In this document: positions 1,539 through 37,139 of the stretch, one piece after another
How positions within the stretch are numbered: the stretch's first letter is position 1
Layout: each line of letters opens with the position of its first letter
Source of the DNA: a virus
DNA length: 48,385 nt
Strand: one strand, 5' to 3'
IMG/VR virus record: IMGVR_UViG_3300010033_000002
Span: 1 to 48,385 of that record
The notes under the pieces: generated by a model
Database searches by the model: none
What the model was told of the DNA's origin: nothing
The model's input: only the letters and a program-made list of their open reading frames with translations
Translations under genes and position numbers: made by a program

Positions 1539-1604
1539 TTTATACGCTCCTATTAATGTTAAAACCTATACAACAGTATCAATCAAAATTGTATCTGTCA
1601 ACTA

Positions 1605-3527: not shown

Positions 3528-3779
3528 TTACTGTTTCCTCTGTCTTAGATTTTTGTAGTGTCTGGCCCAAAATATTTCTTTGCACCTATTGGTGCAGTAG
3601 CGTTTGTTGCTCTTAGATGTTTTTACAACCTTTCCACATGTGGGGCATGGGAAGGTATAAAGCTTTTTCTTTTTAAGGATAACTTTGTCACGGCATTTGT
3701 CGCAGGTCTTACGCGCCATATGGCCTAAGAATTTTTTACCGCACTCTTTACACCTTAACACTCTGTCGACTACTGGCAT
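3528..3779 (-). CDS. Small zinc-ribbon protein (four CxxC pairs)
   Basis: CKEC, CDKC, CPTC and CTNRC with a basic tail. Its stop abuts the polymerase start. Confidence 0.75.
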   Translation of the reverse strand: MPVVDRVLRCKECGKKFLGHMARKTCDKCRDKVILKKKKLYTFPCPTCGKVVKTSKSNKRYCTNRCKEIFWARHYKNLRQRKQ

Positions 3780-3809
3780 AACACCCCCTGTATAAAATCC
3801 ATTTTTTCA

Positions 3810-3915
3810 AAACCGTTAAATCAAGAAATGGGAGCACCGTAGCTTTTTTGCATACTCTTGGTTGCCTTTGAAACTTGCCCCACAGTGCCCCCAGTTCTTG
3901 ATTTAAGAGCGGTTT
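3810..3915. promoter_or_regulatory. Long imperfect inverted repeat in the leader upstream of the Zn-ribbon/PolA genes
   Basis: AAACCGTTAAATCAAGAA (3810-3827) pairs with TTCTTGATTTAAGAGCGGTTT (3895-3915). That is 6+12 bp with a 3-nt bulge and a 67-nt spacer. Confidence 0.4.
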
Positions 3916-3976
3916 ATTTTTCATAATAAATTCAGTTTTTTATAATTTCGTTTTATGGTCATGACTATTTAAAAAT

Positions 3977-4136
3977 AACACACTAATCTAATGTTAATAT
4001 ACATAACAAAATCAACAACATATAGGTTCAGCTTTTCTGAATGTAACCACATGCATAGCGTACAAACCTCCGTTAAACTCAAAATTTAAGCCCTTGAACG
4101 TGACTCGCTGTTTTATAGCTGTTATATGGCTATGAG
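3977..4136 (+). repeat. Copy A of a three-copy ~155-nt intergenic element (sense given for this copy)
   Basis: Aligns by eye with the reverse complements of 21611-21765 and 26761-26912. Shared blocks are ACACTAATCTAATGTTAATAT, AAAATCAACAACATAT.GGTTCAGCTTTTCTGA.TGT.ACC and GTTATAT.GC.ATG. Confidence 0.7.
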
Positions 4137-4156
4137 TTCCTTGGCACGTCATTTGC

Positions 4157-5527
4157 TTACACCATGAAATAATGCCCGGGGTAATGGTGCTGCGTAGAAG
4201 GTGCAAGAACAGTGAGCCTATTTTTAGCTCTTGTTACGGCTGTATATAGGCACCTTAATTCCGCATCAGGGTCAGACCTGTAGCCCTCATCAACTCTATT
4301 TGTCATACTCAGATCCAGTATAACATGGTCATTCTCTGACCCTTTACTGCTATGAAACGTTTCCAAAAGCACAGGTTTTTGTTTTATCCTGGGCATTGCA
4401 AGCTTGTAATAATTGGCATTATATTCAGGGGAAAGGGCAGTATACCAAGGTTTAGAGCTATGCATTTCGGGGAAATATGAAGAGTATTTAGACAACTCAT
4501 CAACGGACACTTTGCCCTCCTGGCATTGCTCATAGGTATGTATTCCCTTAACCAATTGTCGGTCTATGGACAATTTACCCTTATACCTATATGGGATACC
4601 CATGGAGTTTAAAGACTCTGCCATGCCTTGTAAAAGTCTGTTTGTACGACAAAGTACAAGCTCACCGCCTTCAATGGGGACATCGTTTAATGTAGCGTGG
4701 TTCTCAAAATGCCCCACTGCATCCCTTGGTGTATACTTTTTCTCCTTCCTTACAGATATATCTTTTGCAATCCGGCTTGCAATCTTGTGCACCGTAAAGG
4801 GGACTCTATAGCTATGGGTCAGGACTTTCTGTTTCCTTGAATATGCCAGAAAACGCTTTACATCTGCCCCTGCCCAGGCAAATACCGATTGATCATCATC
4901 CCCGGCTACATAGATCTTTTTAGCCTTGCCGAATAGCTTAGCCACAATACGCCATTGAAGTGGAGTGAGGTCTTGACCCTCATCAATAAACGCAACCTCA
5001 ACAGGCAAGGGTTTGCCATGTTTTTCATAGTTCAATAGTAAGTCGTCAAAGTCGATTATGCCTATCTGCTTTTTCATTTCAGCGTACTGAAACCTAACAA
5101 AGTCGAGCTTATTTTCGTCAACTTCTTGAGACAGGGCGTTGGCAAGTTTGTGGTTGTGTTTTTCCATTGATACAATATGCAAGTATATGTCATCACTGCA
5201 AGAAAAATCATCAGTATAATACCCGGTAAAATTGATGCCCGTCTTCTCTGATAGCTCCCTGTAATGGAACTTTGTTATGATGCTACTCCGGTCTGTTCCC
5301 ATAGCTTTAAAACAAAGAGAATGTATAGTTCTAAAGTGTTTAAGTCCATGGTCTGATAGTTTGTATTGTTTCTTAGCTCTTTGCGCTCCCTCATAAGTAC
5401 CTTGACGTGTAAAGGACGCAAAGGCAACTTTTGAAGCAAACCGGCCTTTTAGTTCCTTGCCTAACAGCTCCATTAAATAAGTTGTCTTGCCAGTACCAGG
5501 AGGTCCAAATATCATTTGTCGTCTCAA
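4157..5527 (-). CDS. UvrD/Rep-like superfamily 1 DNA helicase
   Basis: Walker A GPPGTGKTT; motif II FIDEGQDL; motif III VAGDDDQSVFAWAGA; motif IV SYRVP; motif V TFHSSKGSENDHVIL; motif VI LYTAVTRAKNRL. Confidence 0.9.
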   Translation of the reverse strand: MRRQMIFGPPGTGKTTYLMELLGKELKGRFASKVAFASFTRQGTYEGAQRAKKQYKLSDHGLKHFRTIHSLCFKAMGTDRSSIITKFHYRELSEKTGINFTGYYTDDFSCSDDIYLHIVSMEKHNHKLANALSQEVDENKLDFVRFQYAEMKKQIGIIDFDDLLLNYEKHGKPLPVEVAFIDEGQDLTPLQWRIVAKLFGKAKKIYVAGDDDQSVFAWAGADVKRFLAYSRKQKVLTHSYRVPFTVHKIASRIAKDISVRKEKKYTPRDAVGHFENHATLNDVPIEGGELVLCRTNRLLQGMAESLNSMGIPYRYKGKLSIDRQLVKGIHTYEQCQEGKVSVDELSKYSSYFPEMHSSKPWYTALSPEYNANYYKLAMPRIKQKPVLLETFHSSKGSENDHVILDLSMTNRVDEGYRSDPDAELRCLYTAVTRAKNRLTVLAPSTQHHYPGHYFMV

Positions 5528-7095
5528 AACTTGCTTTCTCCTTTGTAGTCTATGGGGACTTGCTCAATCTTTTCCTCATCCTTGCCCCTAAGCTTTATGG
5601 CTATGCCATTTTTCTGCAAAGTTTTTAAGGGGATGTACCAACCTCTGTTGCTTTGACCTATTTCCGGCATTCTGAGCTTTTTAGAACTGTCTGCCCCCAT
5701 TTCACGTAGCAACTTGTGATGCATAGACTTCGGCCAACTTCTAAACATACCTGATTTTTCCAAGTGTTCTAAAAGCTTAGAACCTTTAAACCACATATTA
5801 TCTTTGTCATCTTGCCATACTAAACCCTCTTCAATTGCACTTGGTATAGCTGCTTTCCTGGTGCTAAAAAATTCCTCAACCTTGCCCAACCATAGAGAAT
5901 CTCCAGACATATCGTCTGATGTACTTTCTTCTACAACAACGGAATTCAATGCCCTGTTTAATATTTCACTCCAAGCAGCATCTTTAAGCCTGCAAGGTAC
6001 ATGATGTAGGTATCTCAGGCACAGCTCACGAAACTTGCCCTGATTCATTAATTCTGTTTCGGTATAAAAGAACATATCAACACCGTTTATTGTCCACTTA
6101 TAATAGGGTTGTGAGCACACAACTTGTACAAGTCTTTCAAAGGACAAATCACTGACATTTCCAGCACCTTTGCCATAGTGCCTGAGCTTACATAGGTCTT
6201 TGTCGCAGCACTCTTTTAAAGTTCCATCTGAACATTGATAACTGTATTCGCCTTTTTTATGTGAGGATATAACCGTATTTTCAAGTTCCCCTGGATCTAT
6301 GGGGAAGTCTATCTTAGAGTTCAATGTTTGTAGCTTGTTACCAAAGTCATCCCCAAACCTGGCCTTTAAATATACAGCACAGTTGAAGAGAAAACTGTTT
6401 CGCCCACCTTTATCAGGGCCACCCTGTAAATAGAGCGCTTGCAAGCATGGAGGAGCCTCTGACAAGGGTATATGCTCAAGTGCCTTGGTCAGCTCTTTGA
6501 GTGTGACACGATTGAGCATAGCTGTCTCTATGGCTTCTTCTATTGCCATAGGGGAGCCGTCTAAACTATAGGCATATCGCGCAGTGTTTTTATAATTAAA
6601 GTAGGGTATGTTTATGTAATTCCCTGTGCCTATCAATCTTGTTTGCTTAGGGAATACTTCAGTGTCTTTAGGTAAACCTAATATTACACGTATTTGCTGT
6701 ATTAAGGGCACTGCTTTTTCAGCAAGCGTATCTTCAGAGAAAAAGCAATATAAATGCAATCCACCTGACTTGCTCCGAAATCCCATCAAGGGCAGTTGTG
6801 CCCTTTTGAGGATCTTTAAATATGTAACAGGGTTTAAAGGGTATACGTCAACGTCTATTGCGGCAAACCGTATGTTATGGTTTTTGTCAATAGGTACAAT
6901 ACCGATGGATTCCGCGCCGTGTATATGCTTCAGGTAATGCTCAAGTAAAAGAGGTTCAGTCTTGGTAAAGGATTTGCCTTTAGCTTTTTCTCCTGCTTTA
7001 AAAGGTCCTTTATCAGGAACATGCACCCCTCTTACTGAGTTATTACCCCGGAACAACTCCGCAAAGGCGTCGGCGAATTTCCGGGCGAAGGTCAT
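5524..7095 (-). CDS. Archaeo-eukaryotic-type primase-polymerase (PrimPol) with PriCT-like domain
   Basis: AEP motifs: AAIDVDVY (DxD) and FRSKSGGLHLYCFF (sGGxH). The downstream segment GGRNSFLFNCAVYLKARFG resembles a primase C-terminal domain. Confidence 0.8.
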   Translation of the reverse strand: MTFARKFADAFAELFRGNNSVRGVHVPDKGPFKAGEKAKGKSFTKTEPLLLEHYLKHIHGAESIGIVPIDKNHNIRFAAIDVDVYPLNPVTYLKILKRAQLPLMGFRSKSGGLHLYCFFSEDTLAEKAVPLIQQIRVILGLPKDTEVFPKQTRLIGTGNYINIPYFNYKNTARYAYSLDGSPMAIEEAIETAMLNRVTLKELTKALEHIPLSEAPPCLQALYLQGGPDKGGRNSFLFNCAVYLKARFGDDFGNKLQTLNSKIDFPIDPGELENTVISSHKKGEYSYQCSDGTLKECCDKDLCKLRHYGKGAGNVSDLSFERLVQVVCSQPYYKWTINGVDMFFYTETELMNQGKFRELCLRYLHHVPCRLKDAAWSEILNRALNSVVVEESTSDDMSGDSLWLGKVEEFFSTRKAAIPSAIEEGLVWQDDKDNMWFKGSKLLEHLEKSGMFRSWPKSMHHKLLREMGADSSKKLRMPEIGQSNRGWYIPLKTLQKNGIAIKLRGKDEEKIEQVPIDYKGESKF

Positions 7096-10005: not shown

Positions 10006-11646
10006 TTACACTTTAAAAATGTCATTAATACTTACGTCCACGAAACAACTGTTTAAGTCTTTCCCTTGTCTGAGTACGTCTAAAACCCTCCTTTCAGTTG
10101 GTATATCACATAATAAGTCCTTATATACTGGGTTACTGGCTGTACCTATCCTGTGGGAACGGTCTTCAGCCTGTAATCTTGCCTCTGTTCTGTAGTTTCT
10201 TGAATACCAGTATTGCAGCAAAGCACCCTGTAAATTAAGCCCGTAACCGCCTACAGTGGGGTTACTTACAAGGCATTGAAATTCACCGGCCTTGAACTGT
10301 TTAACCTTGTCATTGTCAGATTCAGGGTCTGTAGAGTTGACACCATAAAGAGCCTTACAAGTTGTGACCTTTGACAGTTCCTCATAAAGCAACTCTATTT
10401 CTGGCCTAAACACAGCCCAAACGATAAATTGTTGGTTACCGACTTCTGGCACACTTTCTACAAGGTGTTGTAACTTGTAGTTTGTACCCTTGATTTTTGT
10501 TGGTTCGAACTTGCCTTCTATGTCAGTGTGATGTGCAACAAATCCGCCGCAGATCTGCAAGACTCTCATACTTAACAAGGCCCTAACCTCTATAGTCAGT
10601 TCGTGCTCGTCAAAGGTTGTCATAGAGTATTTTTTAAGGTCCTTTATAAGGCGTTTTTGCTCAGGATTAAGGGGCAATGTGATTGTTTCATAGATTTTTT
10701 CAGGAAGGTCTAAGCAGTCTTCTTTGCTTGCAGAAAAGGTCACAGGTGCTATCTTTTCCTGCAAGCGTCTAAGATTCTTGTGGGCGATAAGTTCGTCAGA
10801 GCTTGCAATCAAATGGAAATCCTCAGCGCTTAAACCGTATTGGTCACGTATGGCCGCTGCCCTGTATGTATCAATCTGCCCATTCTCACAGGCGTTTTTT
10901 ATCGCAGTCTGGACCTTTTTATGGTATACGGGGTCTATGACATCAAGTCTTGATACAAGACGCCCTTTGCGCTCAAATGTCTTCTTGACCATTACAGTGT
11001 GCTCTTTTTGAAATGCAGTATATGTACATTTCATATAACCCTTGTTAAGGAACTCATACAAAGACCACAAGTCGGCTGGCCTCTTTGCTGCCGGTGTGCC
11101 TGTGATTATACACCGACAGCAGGAGCTAAGCTGTCTTCTAAGCTTGAAAAGGTTTCTGACAGTTTTTGTTCCAGGGTTTTTGATTCGGCTGGCCTCATCG
11201 ACTATGATCATAAGTTTCTCAGGATTGCCGTTGCAAAACCTGTGCACAAGTTCGGAACCTGCGTCCCTTGCAAAGGACTCTATATTGATTGTAAAAACCA
11301 TTGTAGAGGGTTCAGTTTTAGCCCGCATCATGAATAGGTCAAGGTCCCTTATGTAGCTCTTCTTTTTATTCTTTGCAAAGTAAGAGAATCCCACCCATGG
11401 CAAAGGATAATGGGCAGGGAATTGCTCATCTACCCATTGGGGATGCACAGCGTTAAGGGTTATGACTACAACTCTATTAAGGCCAAACAACAGGTTTTTA
11501 TAGCCTATGATATCAATTGCAGTCTTAGACTTTCCTAAACCCATGTCTTCCAAAAGTGCAAAGTACTGCGCATCTTTAAGCTTGTCGTAGGCCTCTTGCT
11601 GATGCGTGTAGGGCTTTGTTTTTGGCACATAATAAGGGGCACTCAT
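10006..11646 (-). CDS. SNF2-family helicase/ATPase
   Basis: Motif I LEDMGLGKSKT; motif II IIVDEASRIKN; motif III ITGTPAAKRPADLWSLYEFL; motif V GGYGLNLQGA; motif VI QAEDRSHRIGT. Confidence 0.93.
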   Translation of the reverse strand: MSAPYYVPKTKPYTHQQEAYDKLKDAQYFALLEDMGLGKSKTAIDIIGYKNLLFGLNRVVVITLNAVHPQWVDEQFPAHYPLPWVGFSYFAKNKKKSYIRDLDLFMMRAKTEPSTMVFTINIESFARDAGSELVHRFCNGNPEKLMIIVDEASRIKNPGTKTVRNLFKLRRQLSSCCRCIITGTPAAKRPADLWSLYEFLNKGYMKCTYTAFQKEHTVMVKKTFERKGRLVSRLDVIDPVYHKKVQTAIKNACENGQIDTYRAAAIRDQYGLSAEDFHLIASSDELIAHKNLRRLQEKIAPVTFSASKEDCLDLPEKIYETITLPLNPEQKRLIKDLKKYSMTTFDEHELTIEVRALLSMRVLQICGGFVAHHTDIEGKFEPTKIKGTNYKLQHLVESVPEVGNQQFIVWAVFRPEIELLYEELSKVTTCKALYGVNSTDPESDNDKVKQFKAGEFQCLVSNPTVGGYGLNLQGALLQYWYSRNYRTEARLQAEDRSHRIGTASNPVYKDLLCDIPTERRVLDVLRQGKDLNSCFVDVSINDIFKV

Positions 11647-11939
11647 CTGTTCACCTCATGGGGGTTTATTAAGTCCAATATGTCCTCTAACTTGCCACAT
11701 ATTTTATCCATACCCTTTTCAATGTCCTGCAACCTGGCATACATTGTATCATGACGCTTAAGGACATCAGGATCAGGATATAACAGCTTTGCTGATTCCG
11801 GCACTTTCCATTTACCATTCACCTTTTCAGCACCTGTTATTTTCCCGTTGTGAATTTGGGCATAAATGTGGTTAGGTGCTTTGCCTGTCATACGTGCAAA
11901 GTCATACACTGACATAAGGTTGTCTTGTTTGTTGCTCAT
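11643..11939 (-). CDS. Small putative helix-turn-helix DNA-binding protein
   Basis: MSVYDFARMTGKAPNHIYAQIHNGKI resembles excisionase/MerR-type HTH proteins. Confidence 0.5.
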   Translation of the reverse strand: MSNKQDNLMSVYDFARMTGKAPNHIYAQIHNGKITGAEKVNGKWKVPESAKLLYPDPDVLKRHDTMYARLQDIEKGMDKICGKLEDILDLINPHEVNR

Positions 11940-11942
11940 ACA

Positions 11943-12836
11943 TTAATCCTTTTCAATTGTGTGCCAGTTTTTATGCACATGTCTTAGTATGCCCCTGTAT
12001 TCAGTTTCAAGGGCTTCTCTTTCATGCCATTTGTCCCAATCAATGTACTTTTCTATATGGTGTTCAACGATATTTCTCATTTTCATTGGGTCAAGGGCAT
12101 CGAGTTCCCAAGAGTCATTTCCGAATTTTTTGATATACATCCATGACCGCGTGTCGGTAATCTTGGCAGGGGCAGGGGGAGGGTTAAAAGCCTGTACTTG
12201 ATCCATGTTTAATGCTATACGCTCCACCTTGCAATAGTTGCCGAACAGGTGTTGCCGGTCCTCAATGTCCCTGGTCATGTCAACGCCTGATGGGTCATGG
12301 TCTCCAAGGTAGATCAAAATTGTGTCTTGACCACGTGTCTTTTTATAGTGTTTAAAACGCTCTTTTGCCTTCCACATGGCGGACTGACTGTTGTAACCCT
12401 TGCAAGCCAAGTAGGGTACATCAAGCTTTAAGCAAGGGCTACTAATAACGCTCATTAAGGCATCTTTTTCTATCCACACTTCAACACGTTGCTCCTGGGT
12501 TTGCCACATGGACATGTAAAACCCTTGCATGGCATCAAAAATAGCCTCACCTGGATTATCATAGTGCCTCACAGCATGTACCTGTCTTACGGTGTCCTCT
12601 ATGGCTGTCCAATCTACCATACCGGCCAAACGTGCTTTTGATAAAATGCTGCCCAAACGTTTGTAACTGCGCATATTGTTTTCGATCAAATCACGGGCAA
12701 CGAACTGATAATATAACTGCCGTAAAGTCAGTGTTATATTGTAGCCTTGATATTCGTTTATGATGCTGTTTGCCTGGGCTATGACGCCTATTGATGAGCG
12801 GTTGAACCTGTGGCCTATGAATGCTTCACGTGTCAT
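11943..12836 (-). CDS. Topoisomerase VI subunit A / Spo11-like 'mini-A' protein (winged helix + Toprim)
   Basis: TLRQLYYQFV matches the catalytic-Tyr motif context. VEVWIEKDAL matches the Toprim Glu motif (VEKdav). ACKGY and YLGDHDPSGVDM match the D.DP.G Toprim acidic cluster. Confidence 0.6.
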   Translation of the reverse strand: MTREAFIGHRFNRSSIGVIAQANSIINEYQGYNITLTLRQLYYQFVARDLIENNMRSYKRLGSILSKARLAGMVDWTAIEDTVRQVHAVRHYDNPGEAIFDAMQGFYMSMWQTQEQRVEVWIEKDALMSVISSPCLKLDVPYLACKGYNSQSAMWKAKERFKHYKKTRGQDTILIYLGDHDPSGVDMTRDIEDRQHLFGNYCKVERIALNMDQVQAFNPPPAPAKITDTRSWMYIKKFGNDSWELDALDPMKMRNIVEHHIEKYIDWDKWHEREALETEYRGILRHVHKNWHTIEKD

Positions 12837-12845
12837 TGTTGCCTC

Positions 12846-13307
12846 CTAATCGTTCATTAACTTTTTAATGTACACAGGCGAGTGTGGAGAGCATTGGTTT
12901 TTCCACTCACCGTCAATAAAATCAATTTCACCAGCGTATACCCTTTTTCCATGGGTTGTGTAACCCTGTTCACCTGGGCAATGGGTTGTCAAAGAACCTT
13001 CTATAAGTCCACAGTCTTTACATACAAACAACCCGCTGTCGCATATTGGGCAGTAGAATTCAGCGCAATTTTCATGTTTAATTGGCGTATGTTCTTTTGG
13101 TAAAACCCCACCTTCAACAGAGGTTTTGAAATCTTTGTAAATTTCAGGGTAGCGCGCCTTAAACTCTGCCTCTGCAATAAACCTATGCTTAAAGTAACCA
13201 TCGCCCATTCCTGTATCTTCCTCTATGATATGATAATGCCCTCCCCAACCGGATTTTATAACACTTATTGCGAATGAATTAAATGTGTAATACTTATGAA
13301 GTTTCAT
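12846..13307 (-). CDS. Cys-rich hypothetical protein
   Basis: CAEFYCPICDSGLFVCKDCG...HCPGE. Clean ORF. Confidence 0.7.
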   Translation of the reverse strand: MKLHKYYTFNSFAISVIKSGWGGHYHIIEEDTGMGDGYFKHRFIAEAEFKARYPEIYKDFKTSVEGGVLPKEHTPIKHENCAEFYCPICDSGLFVCKDCGLIEGSLTTHCPGEQGYTTHGKRVYAGEIDFIDGEWKNQCSPHSPVYIKKLMND

Positions 13308-16672: not shown

Positions 16673-16969
16673 TTAATATTTAAGTTCAGCATCATATTCT
16701 GTTATCAAGCCGAATGCATCTATGTAAAATTTCTTATCCTGGACGCCGAATCTCACAACCTTGTGATCCATCGACAGCTTTTCCCAATCGTCACGTACCA
16801 TGTCTTCAACAAGGAATGTTTTTATCTCAATCTGGTCTTTCTCAGGTATGATTTTAGCGGCAACCATAATGCCAGGCATGGTGTTTGTGATTGAAATGCA
16901 AGTTCCGTTAGGTGCGTTTGTACGAGTTGTATAGGCCAGGTTACAGTTTTTGAAAGGGTCAGTAAACAT
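16673..16969 (-). CDS. Hypothetical protein (98 aa)
   Basis: Clean ORF. TAAATG junction with the upstream reading frame. Confidence 0.65.
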   Translation of the reverse strand: MFTDPFKNCNLAYTTRTNAPNGTCISITNTMPGIMVAAKIIPEKDQIEIKTFLVEDMVRDDWEKLSMDHKVVRFGVQDKKFYIDAFGLITEYDAELKY

Positions 16970-17164
16970 TTAACCCCCTATGCCCATTAAAAGGCCTGTT
17001 ATGATCATCGGTATGGTGCCGTATAATACAAAGTCTGAAAAGGATTTGTACCCTTCTACCTTGCCATCAAGCAGCATGTCAAGGTAAATTGAGTACATAA
17101 CGCAGGCTGACAAACCCTATATACCCAGTAGACCTATAACTTTCATTATACCGTCCATTATCAT
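16970..17164 (-). pseudogene. 64-codon two-TM membrane-protein frame interrupted by one in-frame TAG
   Basis: AAGGAGACTACTAATG start at 17164. The frame exactly fills the gap to 16970 and reads MIMDGIMKVIGLLGI*GLSACVMYSIYLDMLLDGKVEGYKSFSDFVLYGTIPMIITGLLMGIGG*. The TAG is at 17117-17119. Confidence 0.4.
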
Positions 17165-19517: not shown

Positions 19518-19548
19518 TGTGCGCTCCTGTGTCGTGGTTGACCTTAAG
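19518..19548 (-). promoter_or_regulatory. Conserved 31-nt translation-initiation leader, copy 1
   Basis: Minus strand CTTAAGGTCAACCACGACACAGGAGCGCACA, followed by ATG. It matches 20005-20035 at 28 of 31 positions. Confidence 0.6.
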
Positions 19549-20005
19549 CGTGCCTCAGTTTGTTGGCAAGATTGGTGATATGCTTAGCTTCTGCTTTAGA
19601 TGGTGTCCAACTTGTATACAAGTCTGATTGGACTTTTTTAGCCTTAACATATTCGGGCAGAGGTTTGCACCAATCGAAACCTTTTTCACTCAGCAAACTT
19701 CGTATTATATCTGCCTGTTTTTTAGACACAAAGCCTCTTGTGGAGTATTGCTTGACTACAGATGAGTAAAACCTTTTTCTAAACTCTGAACGAAATTTGA
19801 CAGCCTTATAGCACTTAATAAACAATTCCATCATTGGTGCTGTCATGGCACCATAATAGGCGTTGCGTCTATCATCATCACAAATAAAAACTTTCCATAG
19901 GGCTTTTCTATAAACCTTTCGACAAGAAAAGCCTATTCCATCGGGGTTGTCATCTGATATTGCTGCCCCACAAATGCAGCATCTTCTTCCCTCAAATGTT
20001 TCCAT
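19544..20005 (-). CDS. First early-arm gene; Cys-containing hypothetical protein
   Basis: CCICG...SC near the N-terminus. Preceded by the conserved leader and a sigma70-like promoter. Confidence 0.75.
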   Translation of the reverse strand: METFEGRRCCICGAAISDDNPDGIGFSCRKVYRKALWKVFICDDDRRNAYYGAMTAPMMELFIKCYKAVKFRSEFRKRFYSSVVKQYSTRGFVSKKQADIIRSLLSEKGFDWCKPLPEYVKAKKVQSDLYTSWTPSKAEAKHITNLANKLRHA

Positions 20006-20035
20006 GTGCGCTCCTTTGTTGTGGTTGACCTTAAT
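20005..20035 (-). promoter_or_regulatory. Conserved 31-nt translation-initiation leader, copy 2
   Basis: Minus strand ATTAAGGTCAACCACAACAAAGGAGCGCACA, followed by TG of the start codon. Confidence 0.6.
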
Positions 20036-20049
20036 TGCTGTACATGATC

Positions 20050-20078
20050 AAGATACCAAGGCCTGGAAGGCCTGTCAA
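20050..20078 (-). promoter_or_regulatory. Sigma70-like promoter for the leftward early operon
   Basis: Minus strand TTGACA (20078-20073), a 17-nt spacer, then TATCTT (20055-20050). It sits about 40 nt upstream of the ATG at 20005. Confidence 0.55.
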
Positions 20079-20598
20079 GGTTTTTATTACTATTTTTAAT
20101 ATTTTGGGGATCACTGATATATCAGAGGCTAAGATGCCCTATTGACAAGGGTTTCAGGCCGTGGTGCTTGTAAGTGCTTGATATGATTGGAATAACCAAT
20201 GGGCAAGGCTGAGTGTTTTCCGAACGCTTGTTCAGGGTGTTCCATGATGTGGACTTTGGCGTGGAAAATGTTTCATAGGAGGCCTGTCAATAGTAAAGAT
20301 GTTAAAAAGTGTAAATTTCATGTAACATTGGCTTAGTGCTACCCCTGTTACGTTTTTGTAGAATATTCTACACTTTTTTAATAAGGGCCTGATATTGTTA
20401 TATATTGTTTACACTTTTGGGTTTTTGTTTTCAAGTTGTTGATATTACAAGGTAATCTGCTGTTCCGCCGCGCATGTTACCGAGATCATTGTATATATTT
20501 TTAAGTCCATGATATTATTGAGATTAACAGTGTTAGGGGACAGGTAACAATGTTTATGTCATTTGTGTCACGCCGGAAACCCTTGAGGCTGTAGGCGC

Positions 20599-20623
20599 GG
20601 GACAAAGTTCCGGACATGACACG
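20599..20623. repeat. Left arm of the 25-bp inverted repeat
   Basis: GGGACAAAGTTCCGGACATGACACG. The reverse complement of 20787-20811 is GGGACAAAATGCCGGACATGACACG, matching at 23 of 25 positions. Confidence 0.85.
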
Positions 20624-20786
20624 ATTCTGAGAGAAAAGTATTTTTTAGATTAGCAAGTGTTTATTAATATACAACGTTTACAGAGGTGAACACTGTTATT
20701 TTGGTCGTAAGTTACTGATATAATTGGCGATCCGAACTGATGTCTGATATATCAGATTTCAGCGATTTTTCGCGCTTTTTCTGGGC

Positions 20787-20811
20787 CGTGTCATGTCCGG
20801 CATTTTGTCCC
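20787..20811. repeat. Right arm of the 25-bp inverted repeat
   Basis: CGTGTCATGTCCGGCATTTTGTCCC, 163 nt from the left arm. Confidence 0.85.
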
Positions 20812-21279
20812 GGCCCTTTATCCATGCATGTTTCACGCGCTTGCGCTGAGGACACGAAAAAAGTTTTGGCACTTTTGTCTGGATCGTTAGTTATATCAAT
20901 AGGTTGTATGAACATTGAGTAAATTCAAGCACATAGGCACGAACAACCCAATATAACTTGTAATATCAATGACTTACGTTAAAATATACATGTGCGTGAG
21001 TATAACTAACTATATCAGTAACTTGTGGCATAACGGTTTTGAAAATAGAGATTTTGTAACGGTCATTTGGTACCACGTTCGTAACATTTCATACCACATT
21101 GTGGCAGTACCCCATCAAGCAAGAAGTGTGCCGACTGAACGACCATTCATAAAATCGCCAAGATCCGCTTGTGCCAGGGCTTTCCACGATTGGGGATATA
21201 TAACCAATGAACGGGCATTCATTTTTGGGTCATTATGACACATCATGTAACTTTTGATTAGATCTTGGAGGATTTAAAG

Positions 21280-21313
21280 AATGTGAGCCTAGATCTTACA
21301 CCAGGCTCACATT
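21280..21313. other. Perfect 11-bp stem-loop
   Basis: AATGTGAGCCT - 12-nt loop - AGGCTCACATT. There is no flanking U-tract. It is preceded by GGAGGATTTAAAGAATGTGA, an SD followed by a start-stop pair. Confidence 0.5.
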
Positions 21314-21338
21314 GAGGGAGGGTTATAAAAAGGTTGGG

Positions 21339-21437
21339 ATGCTTGATCTGATTCTTGTCTTATTAGTTCATGGTCTGTGTCTTTTCACCATCAACCTCAG
21401 TCCATGTCGCTGTGACTGTTCCGGTATCGTCGTGTAG
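21339..21437 (+). CDS. 32-aa hydrophobic Cys-tailed micro-ORF (speculative)
   Basis: Product MLDLILVLLVHGLCLFTINLSPCRCDCSGIVV. The SD is weak (AAAAGGTTGGG). It sits just downstream of the 21280-21313 hairpin. Confidence 0.15.
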   Translation: MLDLILVLLVHGLCLFTINLSPCRCDCSGIVV

Positions 21438-21610
21438 TTTTTGCACTTCCTTGGATCATTTGCCCATGATGTCATGTAGCAAGCCTGGTGATATCCATAC
21501 AGATGATGAGGACAGGAAGTGTTTTCACATTCGGGTATTCTATAGTTAAGTCATTGTTTTCTCCATACATTTAACTAATGTTAAGCAACAACCGTGCCAA
21601 CAAGCACAGA

Positions 21611-21765
21611 GCTAAAACATGGCTACATAACATCACATCAACGACAAAGGCCTAAACTTTCGTTTTAAGAGAGTTTAGGCCTTTGTCGGTACGGTAACAC
21701 TCAGAAAAGCTGAACCGATATGTTGTTGATTTTACTAACGATACTAACGTTAGATTAGTGTTAAC
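21611..21765 (-). repeat. Copy D of the three-copy intergenic element
   Basis: Its reverse complement begins TTAACACTAATCTAACGTTAGTAT...AAAATCAACAACATATCGGTTCAGCTTTTCTGAGTGTTACC and ends ...GTTATGTAGCCATG. It starts 4 nt after the endolysin stop. Confidence 0.7.
21641..21687 (-). terminator. Perfect 17-bp hairpin downstream of the endolysin unit (probable terminator)
   Basis: CGACAAAGGCCTAAACT - 13-nt loop - AGTTTAGGCCTTTGTCG. On the minus strand it is followed by TTGATGTGATGTT, which is only moderately U-rich. Confidence 0.55.
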
Positions 21766-23098: not shown

Positions 23099-23635
23099 TC
23101 AGGAAGACTTCTTTTCAGCGGCCTTGCGGGCAGCTTCGTCGGGATCGTAGCCTTTCCAGGCTGCCGGTGCAACAGCGCCGGAGCCGACCCTTGTCCACGT
23201 TTCGGTTTCAACATCAAAGTCGATCCACAGACGTTCAGTTTTTTCACAGTTTTTAAGGGCATAGCCGACTTTACGCCGTGTCTCGGAACGTCCCCATTTC
23301 TTCAGCATGAACAGGTCCATTTCCGTAATGGTGGCACCGTCTTCAGGGAAGATTTCAGCAAGTTCACCGTTCATGGTATTGGTGCCGCCGGACCTGGTAA
23401 TAACGCCAAGGCGTTTCATTGCCGTCTGGACATCCTCGGGCAGGGCCTTGTATTCGGGGGATTCTGATGCAATAAACTTGGCAATGGTGTTCTTTGCCGC
23501 GCTGATCTCTGCGCGGGATTTTTTGGCCGCTTCTTTACGCTTGGCGTCGGCTTCTGACTTGGCTTCATTGGCCGCGATTTCTTCCGGGGAAAGCTCCAGT
23601 GTTTCCTCTGCTACTGCTTTTTTCTTACTTGCCAT
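23099..23635 (-). CDS. GC-rich 'moron' gene: Lys/Ala/Glu-rich N-terminus, unknown function
   Basis: 178-aa ORF with SD AAAGGAGAGACAAATG. Hand count of 23101-23160 gives 35/60 G+C, against 27/60 for 1681-1740. It has its own promoter-like TTGACA (23722-23717) and its own terminator. Confidence 0.8.
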   Translation of the reverse strand: MASKKKAVAEETLELSPEEIAANEAKSEADAKRKEAAKKSRAEISAAKNTIAKFIASESPEYKALPEDVQTAMKRLGVITRSGGTNTMNGELAEIFPEDGATITEMDLFMLKKWGRSETRRKVGYALKNCEKTERLWIDFDVETETWTRVGSGAVAPAAWKGYDPDEAARKAAEKKSS

Positions 23636-23894: not shown

Positions 23895-23993
23895 AAAATT
23901 TCCATTTTTAAGAACCGTTAAATAGCCCAAATTTTAATTTTCAGAGGACCTGAGTATTAGGGGCAGCATTAGAACATCGGCTCTTAAATCGAA
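23895..23993 (+). promoter_or_regulatory. Late-operon upstream region sharing boxes with 3794-3915
   Basis: AAAATTTCCATTTTTAAGAACCGTTAAATA (23895-23924) resembles AAAATCCATTTTTTCAAAACCGTTAAATC (3794-3822). CGGCTCTTAAATCGAA (23978-23993) resembles the reverse complement of 3895-3915. Confidence 0.45.
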
Positions 23994-26306: not shown

Positions 26307-26740
26307 TGGACGCGCAACACGTATTGCTCATAATAACGGTGTTGTTTTTGATACTGCAATTCTTGTACCAAGCGTGGTCAAAGAACCAGACACAGAAGGT
26401 ACTTGACTCACACATAGCGCACACTGAGAAAGTTATTAAAGCAAACCAGGAACAAAGTAATGTAATACTCCGCTCAATTGAGGCAGGCGTAAATAGGTTT
26501 GACGAACCTGTTGAACTTACTAAGCGTACATATGGTGTGGTGAGAGAATTAAAAGCCATGCATGAAATACGTGATGAGGACGGGCGACCATTATGGTATA
26601 TGCCAAAGGAAGTTATACAAACTCAGCGTGAACTTGTGCAACTAACAATGACCGTAGCAACAACACAAGAAAAGTTAACGCTTCTTTTGGAACGCCAAGA
26701 AATACATATTAGCTCAATCAAAGAGGGCAGATGCAATTGA
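26303..26740 (+). CDS. N-terminally membrane-anchored coiled-coil protein (i-spanin-like or antiholin-like topology)
   Basis: ATGA overlap with TerL. TM segment VLLIITVLFLILQFLY is followed by a helical, charged region. Confidence 0.7.
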   Translation: MMDAQHVLLIITVLFLILQFLYQAWSKNQTQKVLDSHIAHTEKVIKANQEQSNVILRSIEAGVNRFDEPVELTKRTYGVVRELKAMHEIRDEDGRPLWYMPKEVIQTQRELVQLTMTVATTQEKLTLLLERQEIHISSIKEGRCN

Positions 26741-26760
26741 CATGCCAGTCGTGATTAAAG

Positions 26761-26912
26761 CTAAGTCATGGCTATATTATAACAAATCCCGTTTAAGGGG
26801 GTAAATTTAGCGTTTAACAAAGGTTAGTGCCACATGCGTATGTTTACATTGGAAAAGTCTGAATCAATATGTTACTGATTTGATTGAGCATATTAACATT
26901 AGATAAGTGTAC
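26761..26912 (-). repeat. Copy C of the three-copy intergenic element
   Basis: Its reverse complement begins GTACACTTATCTAATGTTAATAT...AAATCAGTAACATATTGATTCAGACTTTTCCAATGTAAAC and ends ...GTTATAATATAGCCATGAC. On the plus strand, ATATTAACATTAGATAAGTGT ends 35 nt before the ATG at 26946. Confidence 0.7.
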
Positions 26913-26945
26913 GATAATTAAAAATAATTAAGTAAGGAGAGTGTT

Positions 26946-27287
26946 ATGGCAGTTGTAGCGTTAAACAGACGTAGAGATGGCAAGCCCGGAGGGACATTAA
27001 GGTTGTTAACAACGGCGGCAGCAGGCATGTCTGATGCTGTTCAGATTTTCAGTTTGCCATCAGGCAAGTGCATAACTGTTACCCTGATGCCATCAACGAG
27101 TACTGCAAAGGTACAGTTTTCCACCAGCCCTGATGAACTTGTAGAGAATGACACAGCCAATTGGCACGACTGGGCAGCAGGGGATGTTACTGCCACAACT
27201 ACGTCGGCTTTTGCCTCACAGGTGACTGCGTTGCGGTCTGTGGTGGTTTCTGGTACTGCCGACATTATAATGGAGGTTGTAGTGTGA
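26946..27287 (+). CDS. Small beta-rich protein, distant paralog of 36706..37098
   Basis: SD AAGGAGAGTGTTATG. STAKVQFSTSPDE...W.DW parallels FTAKLQHSPDNSTWTD in the head-proximal gene. Confidence 0.75.
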   Translation: MAVVALNRRRDGKPGGTLRLLTTAAAGMSDAVQIFSLPSGKCITVTLMPSTSTAKVQFSTSPDELVENDTANWHDWAAGDVTATTTSAFASQVTALRSVVVSGTADIIMEVVV

Positions 27288-27460
27288 GCCTTGAAAATGC
27301 ATTAGAAATAACCTTAGAGCAAAGCCTTGAAACAGGTTTAGAACAAAAATACTCAGGCTCAACCCCTACACCCCGCCCGAGTCCATGGATACTTGAAACA
27401 GGTAGATGGAATGATGATGGCATATGGGTTGATACAGAGACTTGGAGGGACACACCATGA
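27284..27460 (+). CDS. 58-aa Trp-rich small protein (GTG start)
   Basis: GGAGG lies 7 nt upstream of the GTG at 27284. GTGTGA overlaps the upstream stop, and its own stop overlaps the next ATG (ATGA). Confidence 0.45.
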   Translation: MSLENALEITLEQSLETGLEQKYSGSTPTPRPSPWILETGRWNDDGIWVDTETWRDTP

Positions 27461-30400
27461 AACGCGCTTTACTTGCACTAACATTTTTACTTTTGCTGTG
27501 CTCAAATGCTTACGCAATTGACGCTATTCAGCCCAATGAAACCGGGCTTTCAGCACGAACAAAAATCAATGAAGCTTTTGGAGACATAACAGACCTTAAA
27601 GCTACAGCACCGACCACAGAACAAAAAACTATCCTGGGCTATCTGACTGATGAGACGGATGTTGTTAACTCATCCAAGGCTTTCAGGTTTCCACCTGGTA
27701 CTGTATATGTAGGTCAGACAGGTGTTAATACTGCTGTAATGGCACTTGGTGTCAGGAATGATCACACCGGTGATACCAGCATAGTTATTGCACAGGATTA
27801 CACAGGCACAGGGTTTGAAAATGCCTATGTTTACAGAACTGTAGCAGCAGATACAGTACCGTTGAATGATCCGGCAGGAACTGATGTTGCAAACACAGCG
27901 CAGTTTACAGCAACGACAACTGCTGATGAACTTATCCATACCGTAACAGTTGCAACAAATCAAGCTGATACAGCCGTAACATTTGATGTTACCTTAAGGC
28001 TTAACAGCCATACGGGCATGGAGATATTTGAGTTTGCAGGGAACTTGACCACTGATGCCACAGGACTTGCAACACTAAATCTCAGGACGAGCGGAAACCC
28101 TGTTATTGTTGATAACGCCACAACACTCTATGTCACTATCAATTGCTCAGGCATGTTAGGCCGTACAGTGGGTATGTCTTTTGTACCCAACTTGACTATT
28201 CACAGGGTACAGCTTGCCAGGAGTGACATAACAACTGCTGACAATATAATCACGCAACTTCAAGCCAAGACAGGCGATGACAGGTTAGATGCATCGGCCA
28301 TAAAGAACCTGCCTTCTACTGGTGCATACCTTACAAGCACAAGAGTTCCGACCGGTGTAGTATCAGGAACATGGACACAGGTTGATTTCAACGGTGTTCA
28401 CTTCCTGGCAGATAATACAGTAACAACATTTGCCGCCGGAGCCGCTGCCACTTTTGGCAGCGACACATTCTTCGCCGTTACCAACAATAACACGGCTAAT
28501 ATCACGTTTGATCTCAGCGCTCATGCTGCCACATTCAGTGGCAGTGAAAGTGGAAATACGGACACGATAAACGCCGGTACGACTACTGTGTACTATCATG
28601 ATAACGGCAGTCTTGCTCCGATATCCAATTACAATGAGGCCACAGGCACGGGTGGCGCAAGTGGAGACCATCCCGTGGTGCTCACCAGGGACACACCATC
28701 ATTGGCTGACCTTGGAACAATAGCCGGTGAAAGTGTCGGGGACAATTCGGGCTTATGGCTTGTAGCAAGTGACCAGATCTCAAGCATTGAAACAAACGTT
28801 GATAGCAGTATTATGATAAGGTCTTTGCGCTCAGGTATACTTGATGCCAATGGCGCGGAGATATCCACAACGGCTGTGCAGAAATCGGGTGTGATACTTG
28901 CAGGTGGTACAGTTGTAAGAGTGTTTAGCGCTACTGATTTGCGTGTAGTGTCAGGTCCTCTTATGGCAGCAGGTTCAAGGTATCCCGATATACCTGTCGT
29001 AACGTCGCCTTTAAGCCTTGTTGGTAATCAGATCATATATAACACCTATCGTAACCGCACCCTTGTATTGTCTGATTCCACAGGCACATTTTCTGTGTAC
29101 CTACCAAGTCTGCAAAATGCTCTTGACTTGTCATACCTGGATCGTAACGACGTATTTGCTTTTCGTAATGACACACCTAATGATGCTGTGTTTCGTATCA
29201 GGACCTTTCAGGTTGGTACATTTTTCAGCAGCGGAGGGCAAACTATAGACCTCAGCGCAGGCCAAACCCTTGTTGTTTCTCCTGCGCCGTCTGGTGCAGT
29301 ATGGCAGGTTTTAGCACTGGGTCAAAATTCCGATATAAACACTGAAACAATTACACTGAATACGGACTGGTATAGAGATGAAGCCGACGCCACAGCGGCA
29401 GACAATAGTGTCAGGTTACATTACAATCAGACAATTGAAAGTGGACTTGTCAGGGACCACATACTTGTAGACGATACAGGGCACACCAACAATCCGATAT
29501 CACTGAGATTTCAGCATAGGAATGTACAGGATGATATTGCTTGGATTCAGTGGTGGACAACCTGGGATTCAAGCGTACCCTCGTTAGGAGGCACCGTTGA
29601 AGAGATTGAAGCCAATATACCAACTGCATTGACCTATATAAACAGCAACATCGCATCTGGATTTGACTTTGAAATAGCCGCGCCTGACAGTGTATTGTCA
29701 ATACAGAGCATCGGATGGATATCAGGTAATGAGGTCAGGATCACGTTACACTCTGCCTTTATATCTCCAAGTTTCACAGTAAATCATCCTGTCAGGATAA
29801 ATGGAGCCACAAACAGTGTTCATAATGGCGTGTTTCTTATTGACAGCATTGGTACAACAGGAAGTAACATAACCATACATATTACTAATCCCGGTGTCAC
29901 TGATGGCACTACTGACGAGACAGCCGGTGGTTTTGTTGATGTTCCGGTTTATGCTGATGTTGTGTTTATCTCAAATGACCTCAGACAGGTGAATTTTAAC
30001 CTGTATAAAGACAGCGCAAGGACGAGTTTATGGACCACTATAAACTCCGATTGGTTTGACCCTGAGCACACTGGCGGGTCAAGTGTGTTGTCCATAGGCT
30101 ACAATACTGACATTCAGACACTTGGTTCTCAACTTGCCTTGCAAGACGATGCCGGGGACTGGTTTTCTGTTAAGGGTGGTCCACGCAATACGGTTGGCCT
30201 GCTGGATAACAGAACAAGCTATGTCAGTTCAGGGGTGTACACAAATCCGAGCCATGAGGTTATAAACATTGACACTCTTGGCATAGGCACATTTTATATA
30301 CCTGAGCACCCCAACCACCTTGAACCAGGAGAATCAAGAGTATATAGGATTCATGCCTACTCTACAAACGGAGGAAATGACACCACTGTGACGGCAGGCT

Positions 30401-31041: not shown

Positions 31042-31051
31042 GGAGGCAGAC

Positions 31052-31596: not shown

Positions 31597-31661
31597 CAAT
31601 AAAACATTGATTTTATTCCAGATTTCTGATAACTATATTAATATACCCGGAGGAAATCCCA

Positions 31662-37105: not shown

Positions 37106-37139
37106 GCATGTGGCACAGCATTAATGCTGTGCCACATGC
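37106..37139 (+). terminator. 34-nt perfect palindrome (hairpin) after the head genes
   Basis: GCATGTGGCACAGCATT|AATGCTGTGCCACATGC. It has no U-tract, so it may be an attenuator or stability element rather than a strong terminator. It explains the mirror-image MWHSINAVPHA ORFs on both strands. Confidence 0.5.

Follow-up and report, generated by a model that had tools for sequence, protein, structure and literature searches.

A putative non-coding boundary cassette present in three copies in a compact Pam3-like phage genome

A repeated element in the gaps of a tightly packed genome

The window, that is, the whole stretch of 48,385 nt that was analyzed, represents the complete genome (~48.26 kb) of an uncultivated Pam3-like phage, and its ends overlap by 123 nt. 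The genes are tightly packed: nearly all of them overlap or abut, and true non-coding DNA accounts for ~3.2 kb, or 6.7% of the genome. Three of its few non-coding gaps are taken up by copies of one intergenic element, named A, D and C (Table 1). The element occupies two gaps within long co-directional gene arrays, and a third array is ended by it.

The existence of a three-copy intergenic repeat, proposed in an earlier note on this DNA, was confirmed by a full-length alignment of all three copies (MAFFT, mean column identity 77%). Self-blastn of the window gave 75% identity over 141 nt for A and C (E 2.4e-18) and 85.5% over 69 nt for A and D (E 1.3e-15); the 123-nt terminal overlap aside, these are the strongest dispersed repeats in the window. 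An nhmmer profile matched exactly these three copies, with E values of 1e-52 to 1e-57, and no other noteworthy sequence. The length of ~155 nt given in the earlier note turned out to be too short, since the limits of Smith-Waterman alignments define an element of ~180 nt (A-D, 4159..3980 versus 21582..21761, 72% identity; A-C, 74%; D-C, 70%). Likewise, the ~20-nt gap said to follow the upstream stop codons at copies A and C disappeared, because the homology reaches the helicase stop in A and runs over the stop of a 145-aa ORF in C. The first 9 nt of copy C lie within this ORF (stop counted) and include its TGA stop codon (26738-26740). Next to copy A, weak AT-rich similarity goes on to ~3959.

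As first written, the element runs antisense to its flanking genes at A and C, and only at D does it have the sense of the neighboring gene (endolysin). The gene-sense reading used here places A on the minus strand and C and D on the plus strand. Placement of A and C is stereotyped: the homology begins at or over the upstream stop codon and ends 35-65 nt before the next ORF (35 in C, 55 in A). Read in gene sense, the layout consists of the upstream stop, a 5-bp stem-loop, a central hairpin, a 40-nt block (block 2), a 21-nt box (box 1), an AT-rich leader and the next gene. The genes downstream of the copies are not paralogues, and the idea of a duplicated gene cassette was therefore discarded. 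Another assembly of this phage, Logan SRR5215458, shows 100% identity and hence provides no information on microdiversity. Given the compactness of the genome, the retention of three times 180 nt at 70-74% identity argues for a function.

Table 1. Copies of the repeated element, their component segments and related sites (positions in the window)
Feature	Positions	Strand	Sequence	Remarks
Copy A	3980..4159	-		From helicase stop codon TAA (4157-4159) to end of box 1
Copy D	21582..21761	+		Between ORF-poor region 20006-21590 and endolysin stop (21769); inverted relative to endolysin gene
Copy C	26732..26926	+		Ends ~20 nt before ATG (26946) of 113-aa gene
Small 5' stem-loop	4116..4132	-	AGCYA...TRGCT	5 bp; common to all three copies; loop in A inverted relative to C and D
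Central hairpin, copy A	4066..4101	-		Weak, G-U-rich; 3' arm contains GGAGG
Central hairpin, copy D	21642..21688	+		17 perfect pairs; 20 with one G-U on plus strand
Central hairpin region, copy C	26788..26831	+		-11.3 kcal/mol, z -1.3; -7.2 kcal/mol on other strand
Block 2, copy A	4008..4048	-	GGTTACATTCAGAAAAGCTGAACCTATATGTTGTTGATTTT	88% identity to D, 72% to C
Block 2, copy D	21693..21733	+		88% identity to A
Block 2, copy C	26842..26882	+		72% identity to A
Box 1, copy A	3980..4000	-	ATATTAACATTAGATTAGTGT; core TTAACATTAG	Best-conserved segment, 78-87% pairwise
Box 1, copy D	21741..21761	+	ATACTAACGTTAGATTAGTGT; core CTAACGTTAG	Core is a perfect 10-bp palindrome
Box 1, copy C	26890..26910	+	ATATTAACATTAGATAAGTGT	Matched at 17 of 19 positions by solitary extra box 1
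Solitary extra box 1	21566..21584	-	TTAACATTAGTTAAATGTA	Inverted; abuts 5' end of copy D
Solitary box core	1553..1562	-	TTAACATTAA	In gap between PolA gene and next gene; directly upstream of SD of gene 1134-1538
14-codon ORF, copy A	4012..4056	-	MHVVTFRKAEPICC	GGAGG 10 nt upstream
14-codon ORF, copy C	26834..26878	+	MRMFTLEKSESICY	SD-like AAAGG 10 nt upstream

Conservation is blocky and includes a box confined to non-coding DNA

Pairwise identity is highest in box 1 (78-87%) and block 2 (67-88%), lower in the center (54-68%) and ~50% in the flanks. The similarity is also mosaic, copy A resembling D in block 2 and C in the center.

Box 1 is 21 nt long and has a palindromic core, TTAACRTTAG. 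The core 8-mer TAACRTTA is present at five sites in the genome, all of them non-coding, where 0.5 sites are expected in non-coding DNA (none of 2000 simulations reached five); for coding DNA 2.9 sites are expected and none was observed (P = 0.055). Four of the five sites have an asymmetric box, and the three sites with a clear downstream gene have it in the direction of local transcription. Two of the sites are solitary. The one that abuts copy D shares 17 of 19 positions with the box 1 sequence of copy C (shuffle p ~0.003). The core near the PolA gene is linked more weakly to the element, since the match is limited to a 10-mer; the gap downstream of PolA was also considered as kin of the 3' part of the element, and this was rejected because the similarity is not significant beyond the 10-mer. 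In agreement with the earlier note, the box of copy C ends 35 nt before the ATG at 26946. Being short, partly palindromic and present only in non-coding DNA, box 1 may constitute an operator or another regulator-binding site.

A consensus scan revealed no sigma-70 promoter common to the three copies in either orientation; there was no site on the gene-sense strand of A, and only non-homologous sites in C. Promoters fitted by hand in both senses had 19-nt spacers or poor hexamers (2-4 of 6 positions). A reading of TGCTTA as resembling a T4 MotA box does not fit all copies, and neither does a reading of box 1 as a -35 or -10 element. Pfam and/or PHROGs scans of 35 ORFs yielded neither a phage RNA polymerase nor a sigma factor, and the sole regulator candidate is a weak match, a 98-aa HTH protein (11643-11939). 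Other small phage proteins are an 83-aa Zn-ribbon protein (3528-3779) and a 178-aa protein (23099-23635). With neither a shared sigma-70-type promoter nor a phage RNA polymerase or sigma factor, a specific middle or late promoter is no more than a candidate.

Relatives lack the element and differ at the junctions of copies A and C

Blastn of the region of copy A against 50,697 phage records gave no match, and the regions of copies D and C gave only chance-level matches inside coding genes of unrelated phages. Exact and degenerate pattern scans of IMG/VR, JGI metagenomes and GTDB (185,579 species genomes), which demand exact matches so that diverged copies could be missed, produced a few chance matches to the pattern alone. 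Homologues of the element, which the earlier note had proposed to look for in databases, were thus not found in any collection searched. Two 40-aa cluster members tried as relatives proved to be unrelated.

The nearest relatives (L001, L002 and L009) lack the element and have no dispersed repeats themselves. The earlier note had named absence from related phages as a result that would refute the element; the element is indeed absent from the closest ones, but at 54-58% amino acid identity this makes a weak test. Its absence from the relatives and from all collections scanned means that phylogenetic support is lacking, and three sequences offer little power.

In a coarse comparison with these same relatives, copies A and C lie at synteny break-points. 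At the position of A the relatives carry a ThyA-dCMP-deaminase gene and a 72-aa gene. The 113-aa gene downstream of C, together with a 174-aa gene further along the module, is located after the tail-fibre gene in the relatives. One relative also has a gap, of 180 nt and containing a hairpin, at the corresponding junction before the PolA operon. With relatives this distant, differences are found at many junctions, and co-location with insertions and deletions is therefore weak evidence.

These data bear on the possibility that the copies are functionless relics, in which case an ordinary intergenic region (3' UTR plus 5' leader) would have been duplicated during module rearrangement and would now be decaying. 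The pairwise identity of only 70-74%, the absence from relatives and the location of A and C at rearranged junctions are all consistent with it, as are the insignificant folds of A and C and the broken micro-ORF of D described below; the mosaic similarity (A-D in block 2, A-C in the center) could reflect old recombination. However, in so compact a genome 540 nt of junk should disappear quickly. Moreover, conservation is uneven and centers on box 1 and block 2, the box core recurs as solitary copies in non-coding DNA only, and the hairpin shows compensatory changes (see below). We consider the relic explanation unlikely.

The central hairpin and the possibility of a structured RNA

The perfect 17-bp hairpin reported earlier for copy D is present, and if one G-U pair is allowed it is 20 bp long on the plus strand. 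The plus strand folds with -34.7 kcal/mol (z -9.7), the minus strand with -29.4 kcal/mol. The hairpin of copy A reaches -10.5 kcal/mol (z -0.7) and -4.2 kcal/mol on the other strand. G-U pairs make the central hairpin of every copy more stable on the gene-sense strand, by 4-6 kcal/mol, and the RNAalifold consensus is likewise better on that strand (-13.8 versus -5.4 kcal/mol). Nine pairs show changes on both sides, versus 4.4 in shuffles (2 of 500 shuffles reach nine), this structure having been derived from and tested on the same three sequences; six of the nine fall within the 16-pair central helix. The compensatory changes suggest that the central hairpin has been kept to some extent in structure though it varies in sequence.

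Whole-element folds of A and C are no better than those of shuffles (z +1.1 to -0.1; A +1.1, C 0.05). A covariance search of Rfam 15 gave no match at the gathering score and, when matches up to E <= 1 were accepted, nothing beyond generic hairpin similarity to miRNA and sRNA models. A tRNA search was negative as well. A scan for intrinsic terminators did not call the central hairpin in any copy, and in D it called only the end stems 21609-21592 and 21735-21753. The central hairpins are not followed by a U tract: the tails in D read GGUACGG (plus) and GUUGAUG (minus), and there is no U run in A or C. Canonical terminators are present elsewhere in the window, for instance at 22969-22936. Other perfect intergenic hairpins that lack a U tract are located at 3816-3906 and 37106-37139.

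The element might accordingly function as RNA transcribed in gene sense, acting in cis or as a small RNA, for example as a site for RNase III or other processing, a 3'-end stabilizer, an antitermination element or an antisense regulator. In this RNA reading the transcript of copy D would be antisense to the endolysin mRNA. Besides the strand preference of the consensus and of the G-U pairs and the excess of compensatory pairs, the perfect 20-bp duplex of D would, judging from general knowledge of the enzyme, suit RNase III, and the further U-tract-less hairpins between genes fit as well. Against these points stand the whole-element z scores of A and C and the values of only -0.7 and -1.3 for their central hairpins, the lack of an Rfam family match even with E <= 1 included, and the absence of convincing structure from box 1 and block 2, which are the best-conserved parts. 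A structured RNA, an sRNA or an antitermination element, all candidates in the earlier note, is thus weakly supported at best: the compensatory changes in the central hairpin speak for it, but the Rfam result and the shuffle-like folds of A and C do not. We regard an RNA of this kind as distinctly unlikely.

Mobile element, replication site or peptide gene

A dispersed repeat of ~180 nt has the right size for a MITE-like, non-autonomous mobile element with three intergenic insertions, and absence from the relatives would be expected of it. Copy D is in addition bracketed by inverted 19-21-nt boxes (21566-21584 and 21741-21761), and small hairpins are present near both ends of the element. However, A and C have one box only, their other end abutting a stop codon, and no target-site duplication was seen when the flanks were read by eye. 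No transposase, integrase or homing-endonuclease match was obtained among the 35 ORFs scanned, exact-pattern scans of the 185,579 species genomes, the JGI metagenomes and IMG/VR revealed no host-genome copies, and the copies are too diverged for recent transposition. Insertion of a mobile element is therefore quite improbable.

Alternatively, the copies may have a polar role in replication, for instance as sites of single-strand initiation or of priming by the AEP primase-polymerase of the phage, and be oriented with a fork that leaves an origin at 17-21.5 kb. One rule would then fit all three orientations, the better-folding strand being minus in A, to the left of the putative origin, and plus in D and C, to its right. 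The cumulative GC skew has its minimum at 16.8 kb, stays on a low plateau to ~24 kb and reaches its maximum at 47.8 kb; copy D adjoins an ORF-poor region (20006-21590) that is rich in palindromes and repeats; and the phage encodes its own AEP primase (5524-7095) and helicase. Only copy D, however, separates this rule from transcription polarity, which amounts to a 50% coincidence, and the trough in the skew is so wide that it does not position D with respect to an origin. The hairpins of A and C are weak, and no likeness to known ssi or pas sites was seen, as judged without a curated set. A replication role of this type appears very improbable.

The coordinates and peptides of the 14-codon micro-ORFs of copies A and C given in the earlier note are correct, as is the GGAGG upstream of that in A; also correct is that D keeps the frame without a start codon, and in D the frame moreover contains an in-frame TAG. 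The idea that this ORF is translated, as a member of a small gene family or as a leader peptide forming the functional part of the element, draws on the aligned ATG column, stop and SD-like sequence (GGAGG or AAAGG, 10 nt upstream) shared by A and C and on the overlap with conserved block 2, but it is hardly tenable in view of the state of D, of A-C substitutions that show no third-position bias (4, 2 and 4 at codon positions 1, 2 and 3), of a peptide identity (6 of 14) that is no higher than that predicted from 69% nucleotide identity under neutrality, and of the lack of a terminator or alternative pairing downstream that would make an attenuator. The leader-peptide proposal is accordingly not supported, and neither 14-codon ORF is likely to represent a conserved gene. 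The opposite strand has a 32-codon ORF, which was rejected too because it is interrupted in C.

A boundary cassette as the preferred explanation

Our preferred reading, to which we assign a probability of about 0.4, is that the element is a putative lineage-specific, non-coding boundary cassette with cis-regulatory and recombination functions, and not a peptide gene or a folded RNA. It would be analogous to, without being a member of, the promoter-early stem-loop (PeSL) cassettes of T4-type phages (Arbiol et al. 2010, PMC2839356; Comeau et al. 2014, PMC4122927). A module-boundary or PeSL-like cassette was one of several possibilities listed in the earlier note; the gaps, stop codons and synteny breaks are compatible with it, but no sigma-70-type site is shared by the copies.

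According to this model, a cassette of ~180 nt would have been copied to three gene-block junctions of the compact Pam3-like genome. The hairpin would act on the upstream transcript, in 3'-end formation, processing or protection, and at the convergent junction of copy D it could form a strong bidirectional block. Block 2 and box 1 would together be a DNA recognition site, either an operator or promoter-proximal, for a phage or host factor, and this site would gate expression of the downstream module. As a repeated sequence, the cassette might also have served as substrate for the recombination that reshuffled the modules. The repeat and its exact placement, the blocky conservation, the compensatory changes, the restriction of the box to non-coding DNA and the synteny breaks are observed; that the element binds a factor or acts as a promoter, that its RNA is processed and that it takes part in recombination are inferred. 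Several observations go against the cassette: no sigma-70-like promoter is shared, no clear phage regulator was detected, A and C fold like shuffles, the hairpins have no U tract, and the element is absent from the relatives and collections scanned. Furthermore, copy D is inverted relative to the endolysin gene, and its box therefore points antisense into endolysin, unless an unannotated rightward transcript exists.

A bolder version, for which we see only a small chance, combines two variants: the element could be a polar, strand-specific cis element whose orientation follows replication and not transcription (e.g. a loading or priming site for the AEP primase-helicase), or it could be a self-propagating regulatory cassette whose box is recognized by an as yet unrecognized phage transcription factor. 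If true, this would be a previously undescribed class of polar cis element in Pam3-like phages.

As it stands, with one genome and no relatives carrying it, the element is a well-documented curiosity and not a discovery. Pam3-like phages are widespread, uncultivated small myophages, and the 21-nt intergenic box offers a handle for finding a regulator and for delimiting transcription units.

Comparison with known systems

In PeSL cassettes a stem-loop lies upstream of a regulatory sequence, an SD and a start codon, and the cassettes adjoin insertions and deletions (PMC4122927). The boundary cassette proposed here and PeSLs are both repeated composite intergenic elements in which a stem-loop is followed by a conserved regulatory segment, an SD and the start of the next gene. 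Both are found next to insertions, deletions or displaced genes relative to related genomes, and roles in regulation and as recombination substrates have been proposed for both. PeSLs are defined, however, by a sigma-70-like promoter (-35/N17/-10), and none is common to the present copies. The stem-loop occupies the same place in all copies here, but whereas that of D is a perfect 17-20 bp (z -9.7), those of A and C are weak (z -0.7 and -1.3), albeit with compensatory changes. PeSLs are also shorter and occur in dozens of copies in T4-like genomes of 160-250 kb, versus three copies of ~180 nt in a 48-kb Pam3-like phage. Unlike PeSLs, the present element has one copy inverted relative to the neighboring gene, and it has no sequence similarity to them.

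T7-like phages have intergenic RNase III sites, which are often paired with a conserved 20-23-nt recognition box (a promoter). These sites share with the present element the existence of a family of mutually similar hairpins between operon genes, the lack of a U tract and the pairing with a box. They differ in that no phage RNA polymerase was detected among the ORFs scanned here, that only the duplex of D is long enough for RNase III, and that A and C are not significantly structured.

The stoperators of cluster A mycobacteriophages are 13-14 bp sites, present in 20-35 copies, that are bound by the known repressor of a temperate phage. Like box 1, they are short conserved sequences found at several sites and only between genes. 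Box 1, in contrast, is embedded in a 180-nt repeat, and no repressor or integrase was identified in the present phage.

Lambdoid boundary sequences at gene junctions are shared between different genomes, whereas the present element is repeated within one genome and found in no other. The hallmarks of MITEs, inverted repeats at both ends of all copies and target duplications, are not seen here, as only copy D is bracketed. What the present element does have in common with lambdoid boundary sequences and with MITE-like/MPME elements is that all of them are short, lie at module junctions, may mediate exchange and are distributed patchily among relatives. Should the cassette take part in module exchange as well, the PeSL concept, in which mobile regulatory cassettes drive the shuffling of modules, would apply outside the T4-type phages and to genomes of far smaller size.

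A three-copy non-coding element

The three non-coding stretches that the earlier note had aligned by eye do align (MAFFT, mean column identity 77%), and exactly three copies were found with an nhmmer profile. The repeat surpasses the rest of the window in self-blastn (E = 2.4e-18 for copies A and C, 1.3e-15 for A and D); the terminal overlap aside, no other dispersed repeat in the window scored as well. Local alignment gave pairwise identities of 70-74% and an extent of ~180 nt, longer than originally reported (~155 nt). The details then read from the sequence (micro-ORFs, GGAGG, 17-bp hairpin, TTAAAC repeats and the 35-nt distance) are right; the sense in which the element was written is antisense to the flanking genes of copies A and C. 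Below, "gene sense" is the direction of those genes.

Positions of the copies of the element and of an additional box 1
Feature	Position	Strand or sense	Basis
Copy A	4159..3980	minus	local alignment
Copy D	21582..21761	plus	local alignment
Copy C	~26732..26926	plus	local alignment
Box 1 copy, 19 nt	21566-21584	inverted	17/19 vs box of copy C, p ~0.003

The window, whose terminal 123 nt (1-123 and 48263-48385) are identical, is therefore a complete, circularly assembled genome of ~48.26 kb (~48,262 nt), circular or terminally redundant. An independent Logan assembly from another sample (SRR5215458) matches it at 100% identity across 21 kb, copies C and D included. The genes form two arms, one on the minus strand extending from ~23.6 kb to the window start and the other on the plus strand between 24.1 and 46.9 kb. 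Pfam and PHROGs matches comprise UvrD-type and SNF2 helicases, an AEP primase, PolA, a ligase, a GH108 endolysin, the two terminase subunits and proteins like Pam3 gp33 and gp34; the genes for portal, protease and capsid were assigned via Pfam labels on sequences L008 and L009 plus synteny. PolA is only ~34% identical to that of the nearest isolated phages, and the nearest metagenomic relatives, which are collinear with the window, reach 54% identity in the helicase and 58% in the terminase. This is a very compact genome, with ~3.2 kb of true non-coding DNA; the apparent gaps at 16969-17164 and 27287-27442 hold short ORFs.

Placement of the copies

Within the two long co-directional gene arrays, copies A and C have no counterpart of similar size among non-coding inserts. 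Between the helicase gene and the conserved Zn-ribbon/PolA pair, where copy A lies, the relatives instead encode a fused thymidylate-synthase/dCMP-deaminase (ThyA-dCMP deaminase) and a 72-aa protein. The regions compared were 3925-4156 of the window, 11380-13063 of relative L001 and 11387-12598 of L002; no ORF at that position of the window matches the fused gene. Downstream of copy C, the module at 26946-32186 (genes of 113, 58, 1194, 115, 66 and 174 aa, the 1194-aa protein having a signal-peptide-like N-terminus) is rearranged with respect to the relatives, in which the portal gene closely follows the terminase block and homologues of the 113-aa and 174-aa genes come after the tail-fibre gene. 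Since the 113-aa gene is displaced there, its junction with the 145-aa gene is new. None of the genes downstream of the copies is a paralogue of another.

Copy D lies at the end of the lysis block, next to an ORF-poor 1.6-kb region (20006-21590). This region holds perfect palindromes at 20357-20372 (TGTAGAATATTCTACA) and 20743-20756 (TCTGATATATCAGA), a 31-nt inverted repeat (20593-20623/20787-20817), numerous TGATAT motifs and a good sigma-70-like site on the minus strand facing the replication genes (TTGACA-17-TATCTT, 20078-20050). It is a candidate for an origin or an early control region.

Anatomy of the element and the box core

In gene sense, homology starts with the helicase stop codon in copy A (TAAGCAA...) and 9 nt inside the 145-aa ORF in copy C; the TGA of that ORF is matched in the alignment by a non-coding TGA of copy A. 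There follow a 5-bp stem-loop (AGCYA...TRGCT, its loop inverted in A), a variable spacer, a central hairpin, block 2 (GGTTACATTCAGAAAAGCTGAACCTATATGTTGTTGATTTT), 8 variable bases, box 1 (ATAYTAACRTTAGATWAGTGT) and an AT-rich stretch. Between pairs of copies, box 1 is 78-87% identical and block 2 67-88%; identity falls to 54-68% for the centre and to ~50% beyond the ends.

Five genomic sites carry the box core TAACRTTA: one in each copy, plus those at 21576 and 1554. None of them is coding. First-order Markov simulation predicted 0.5 sites in non-coding DNA, and five were reached in none of 2000 runs; in coding DNA 2.9 were expected and none was observed (P = 0.055). The core of copy D is a perfect 10-bp palindrome. 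The additional box abuts the 5' end of D, which therefore is the only copy bracketed by inverted boxes. This pattern would suit a protein-recognition site on DNA. The match at 1553-1562 (minus strand, TTTTAACATTAATAGGAG) is limited to the 10-mer; it immediately precedes the SD sequence of gene 1134-1538, the one following PolA. This site looks similar, in both sequence and placement, to the "epsilon" enhancer of translation of T7 gene 10, which has UUAACUUUA ahead of the SD sequence.

Other short repeats were noted. The repeat ATTTAACGGTTYTKAAAA(A)TGGA, with a 15-nt exact match, has three non-coding sites (3791-3821 and 23896-23923, minus; 21031-21058, plus). Two adjacent genes have 93% identical 30-nt translation-initiation regions (19518-19547 and 20005-20034), and GGAGCGCACAATGAGAACA (14556, 19096, 19509) is exact at two gene starts and 79% identical at the third. 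ATGTCAA(G/C)(T/G)AT occurs three times on the plus strand (23713, 23865, 24056) in the control region from which the two gene arms diverge; these are possible regulator-binding sites or -35-like elements.

Promoter signals and RNA structure

In consensus scans the copies shared no sigma-70-like site, whichever sense was read, and manual fits gave only 19-nt spacers or poor hexamers. A phage RNA polymerase or sigma factor was not matched among the 35 ORFs scanned (11 by Pfam only, 8 by PHROGs only, 16 by both), a set that covers only a minority of the structural ORFs. Because of these two results, promoter activity of the element is something we can only infer.

Neither strand of A or C, folded as a whole copy, was more stable than shuffled sequence (z = +1.1, 0.05, 0.4 and -0.1); whole-copy D (z = -6.2) owes its score to its hairpin. 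The RNAalifold consensus reached -13.8 kcal/mol on the gene-sense strand versus -5.4 on the other. In the former, nine pairs were changed on both sides versus 4.4 in column shuffles (at least nine in 2/500), six of them within the 16-pair central helix; this test used three sequences only, the structure being derived from the same three. Owing to G-U pairs, the central region of each copy is more stable by 4-6 kcal/mol on the gene-sense strand. Together these folds give a hint, not proof, that a hairpin is maintained at the central position and that it is the gene-sense strand that matters. No U tract follows the central hairpin in any copy; canonical terminators are present elsewhere in the phage (22969-22936).

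Two other hairpins were observed. One (3816-3906, minus strand) is situated between copy A and the Zn-ribbon gene; its 25-nt arms are 88% complementary around a 41-nt loop, and the region has z = -4.8. It falls within a 58-aa ORF (3748-3924) that has no homologue in the relatives and is probably not a gene. The other, a perfect 34-nt palindrome (37106-37139, 17-bp stem, no U tract), separates two structural genes. Directly after it come AGGAG and an ATG at 37150, suggesting an error in the annotated start (37108).

Interpretation

We tentatively read the element as a cis-regulatory boundary cassette (probability about 0.4), because it is kept in a compact genome with a stereotyped placement from stop codon to leader, its conservation is blocky, its box is confined to non-coding DNA and its hairpin appears structurally maintained. 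Its repetition probably also fed module rearrangement. The main weaknesses of this reading are that D is inverted, that promoter or terminator signals are not identifiable and that the element is seen in one genome only: phage records, IMG/VR, JGI metagenomes and GTDB genomes gave no match, agreement in the few hits being restricted to the search pattern itself, and the nearest relatives lack both the element and any dispersed repeats of their own. That the copies are a neutral relic is unlikely. Less probable is a processing or small RNA, for which Rfam gave no match, and a MITE-like element is less so again. A replication-polar site, with A on one strand and C and D on the other, is very improbable.

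A leader peptide is the least credible alternative. Of the 14-codon micro-ORF proposed earlier, the start column, SD-like motif and stop are indeed common to A and C, but D has no start codon and an in-frame TAG. Differences between A and C by codon position (4, 2 and 4) show no bias, and the peptide identity (6/14) is that expected from 69% nucleotide identity; we do not consider the micro-ORF a conserved gene.

Returning to the boundary cassette, a sigma-70 promoter defines the promoter-early stem-loop (PeSL) cassettes of T4-type phages (PMC4122927). Since no such promoter common to the copies was found, we have not classed the element as a PeSL, although PeSLs are its closest analogue (PMC4122927).
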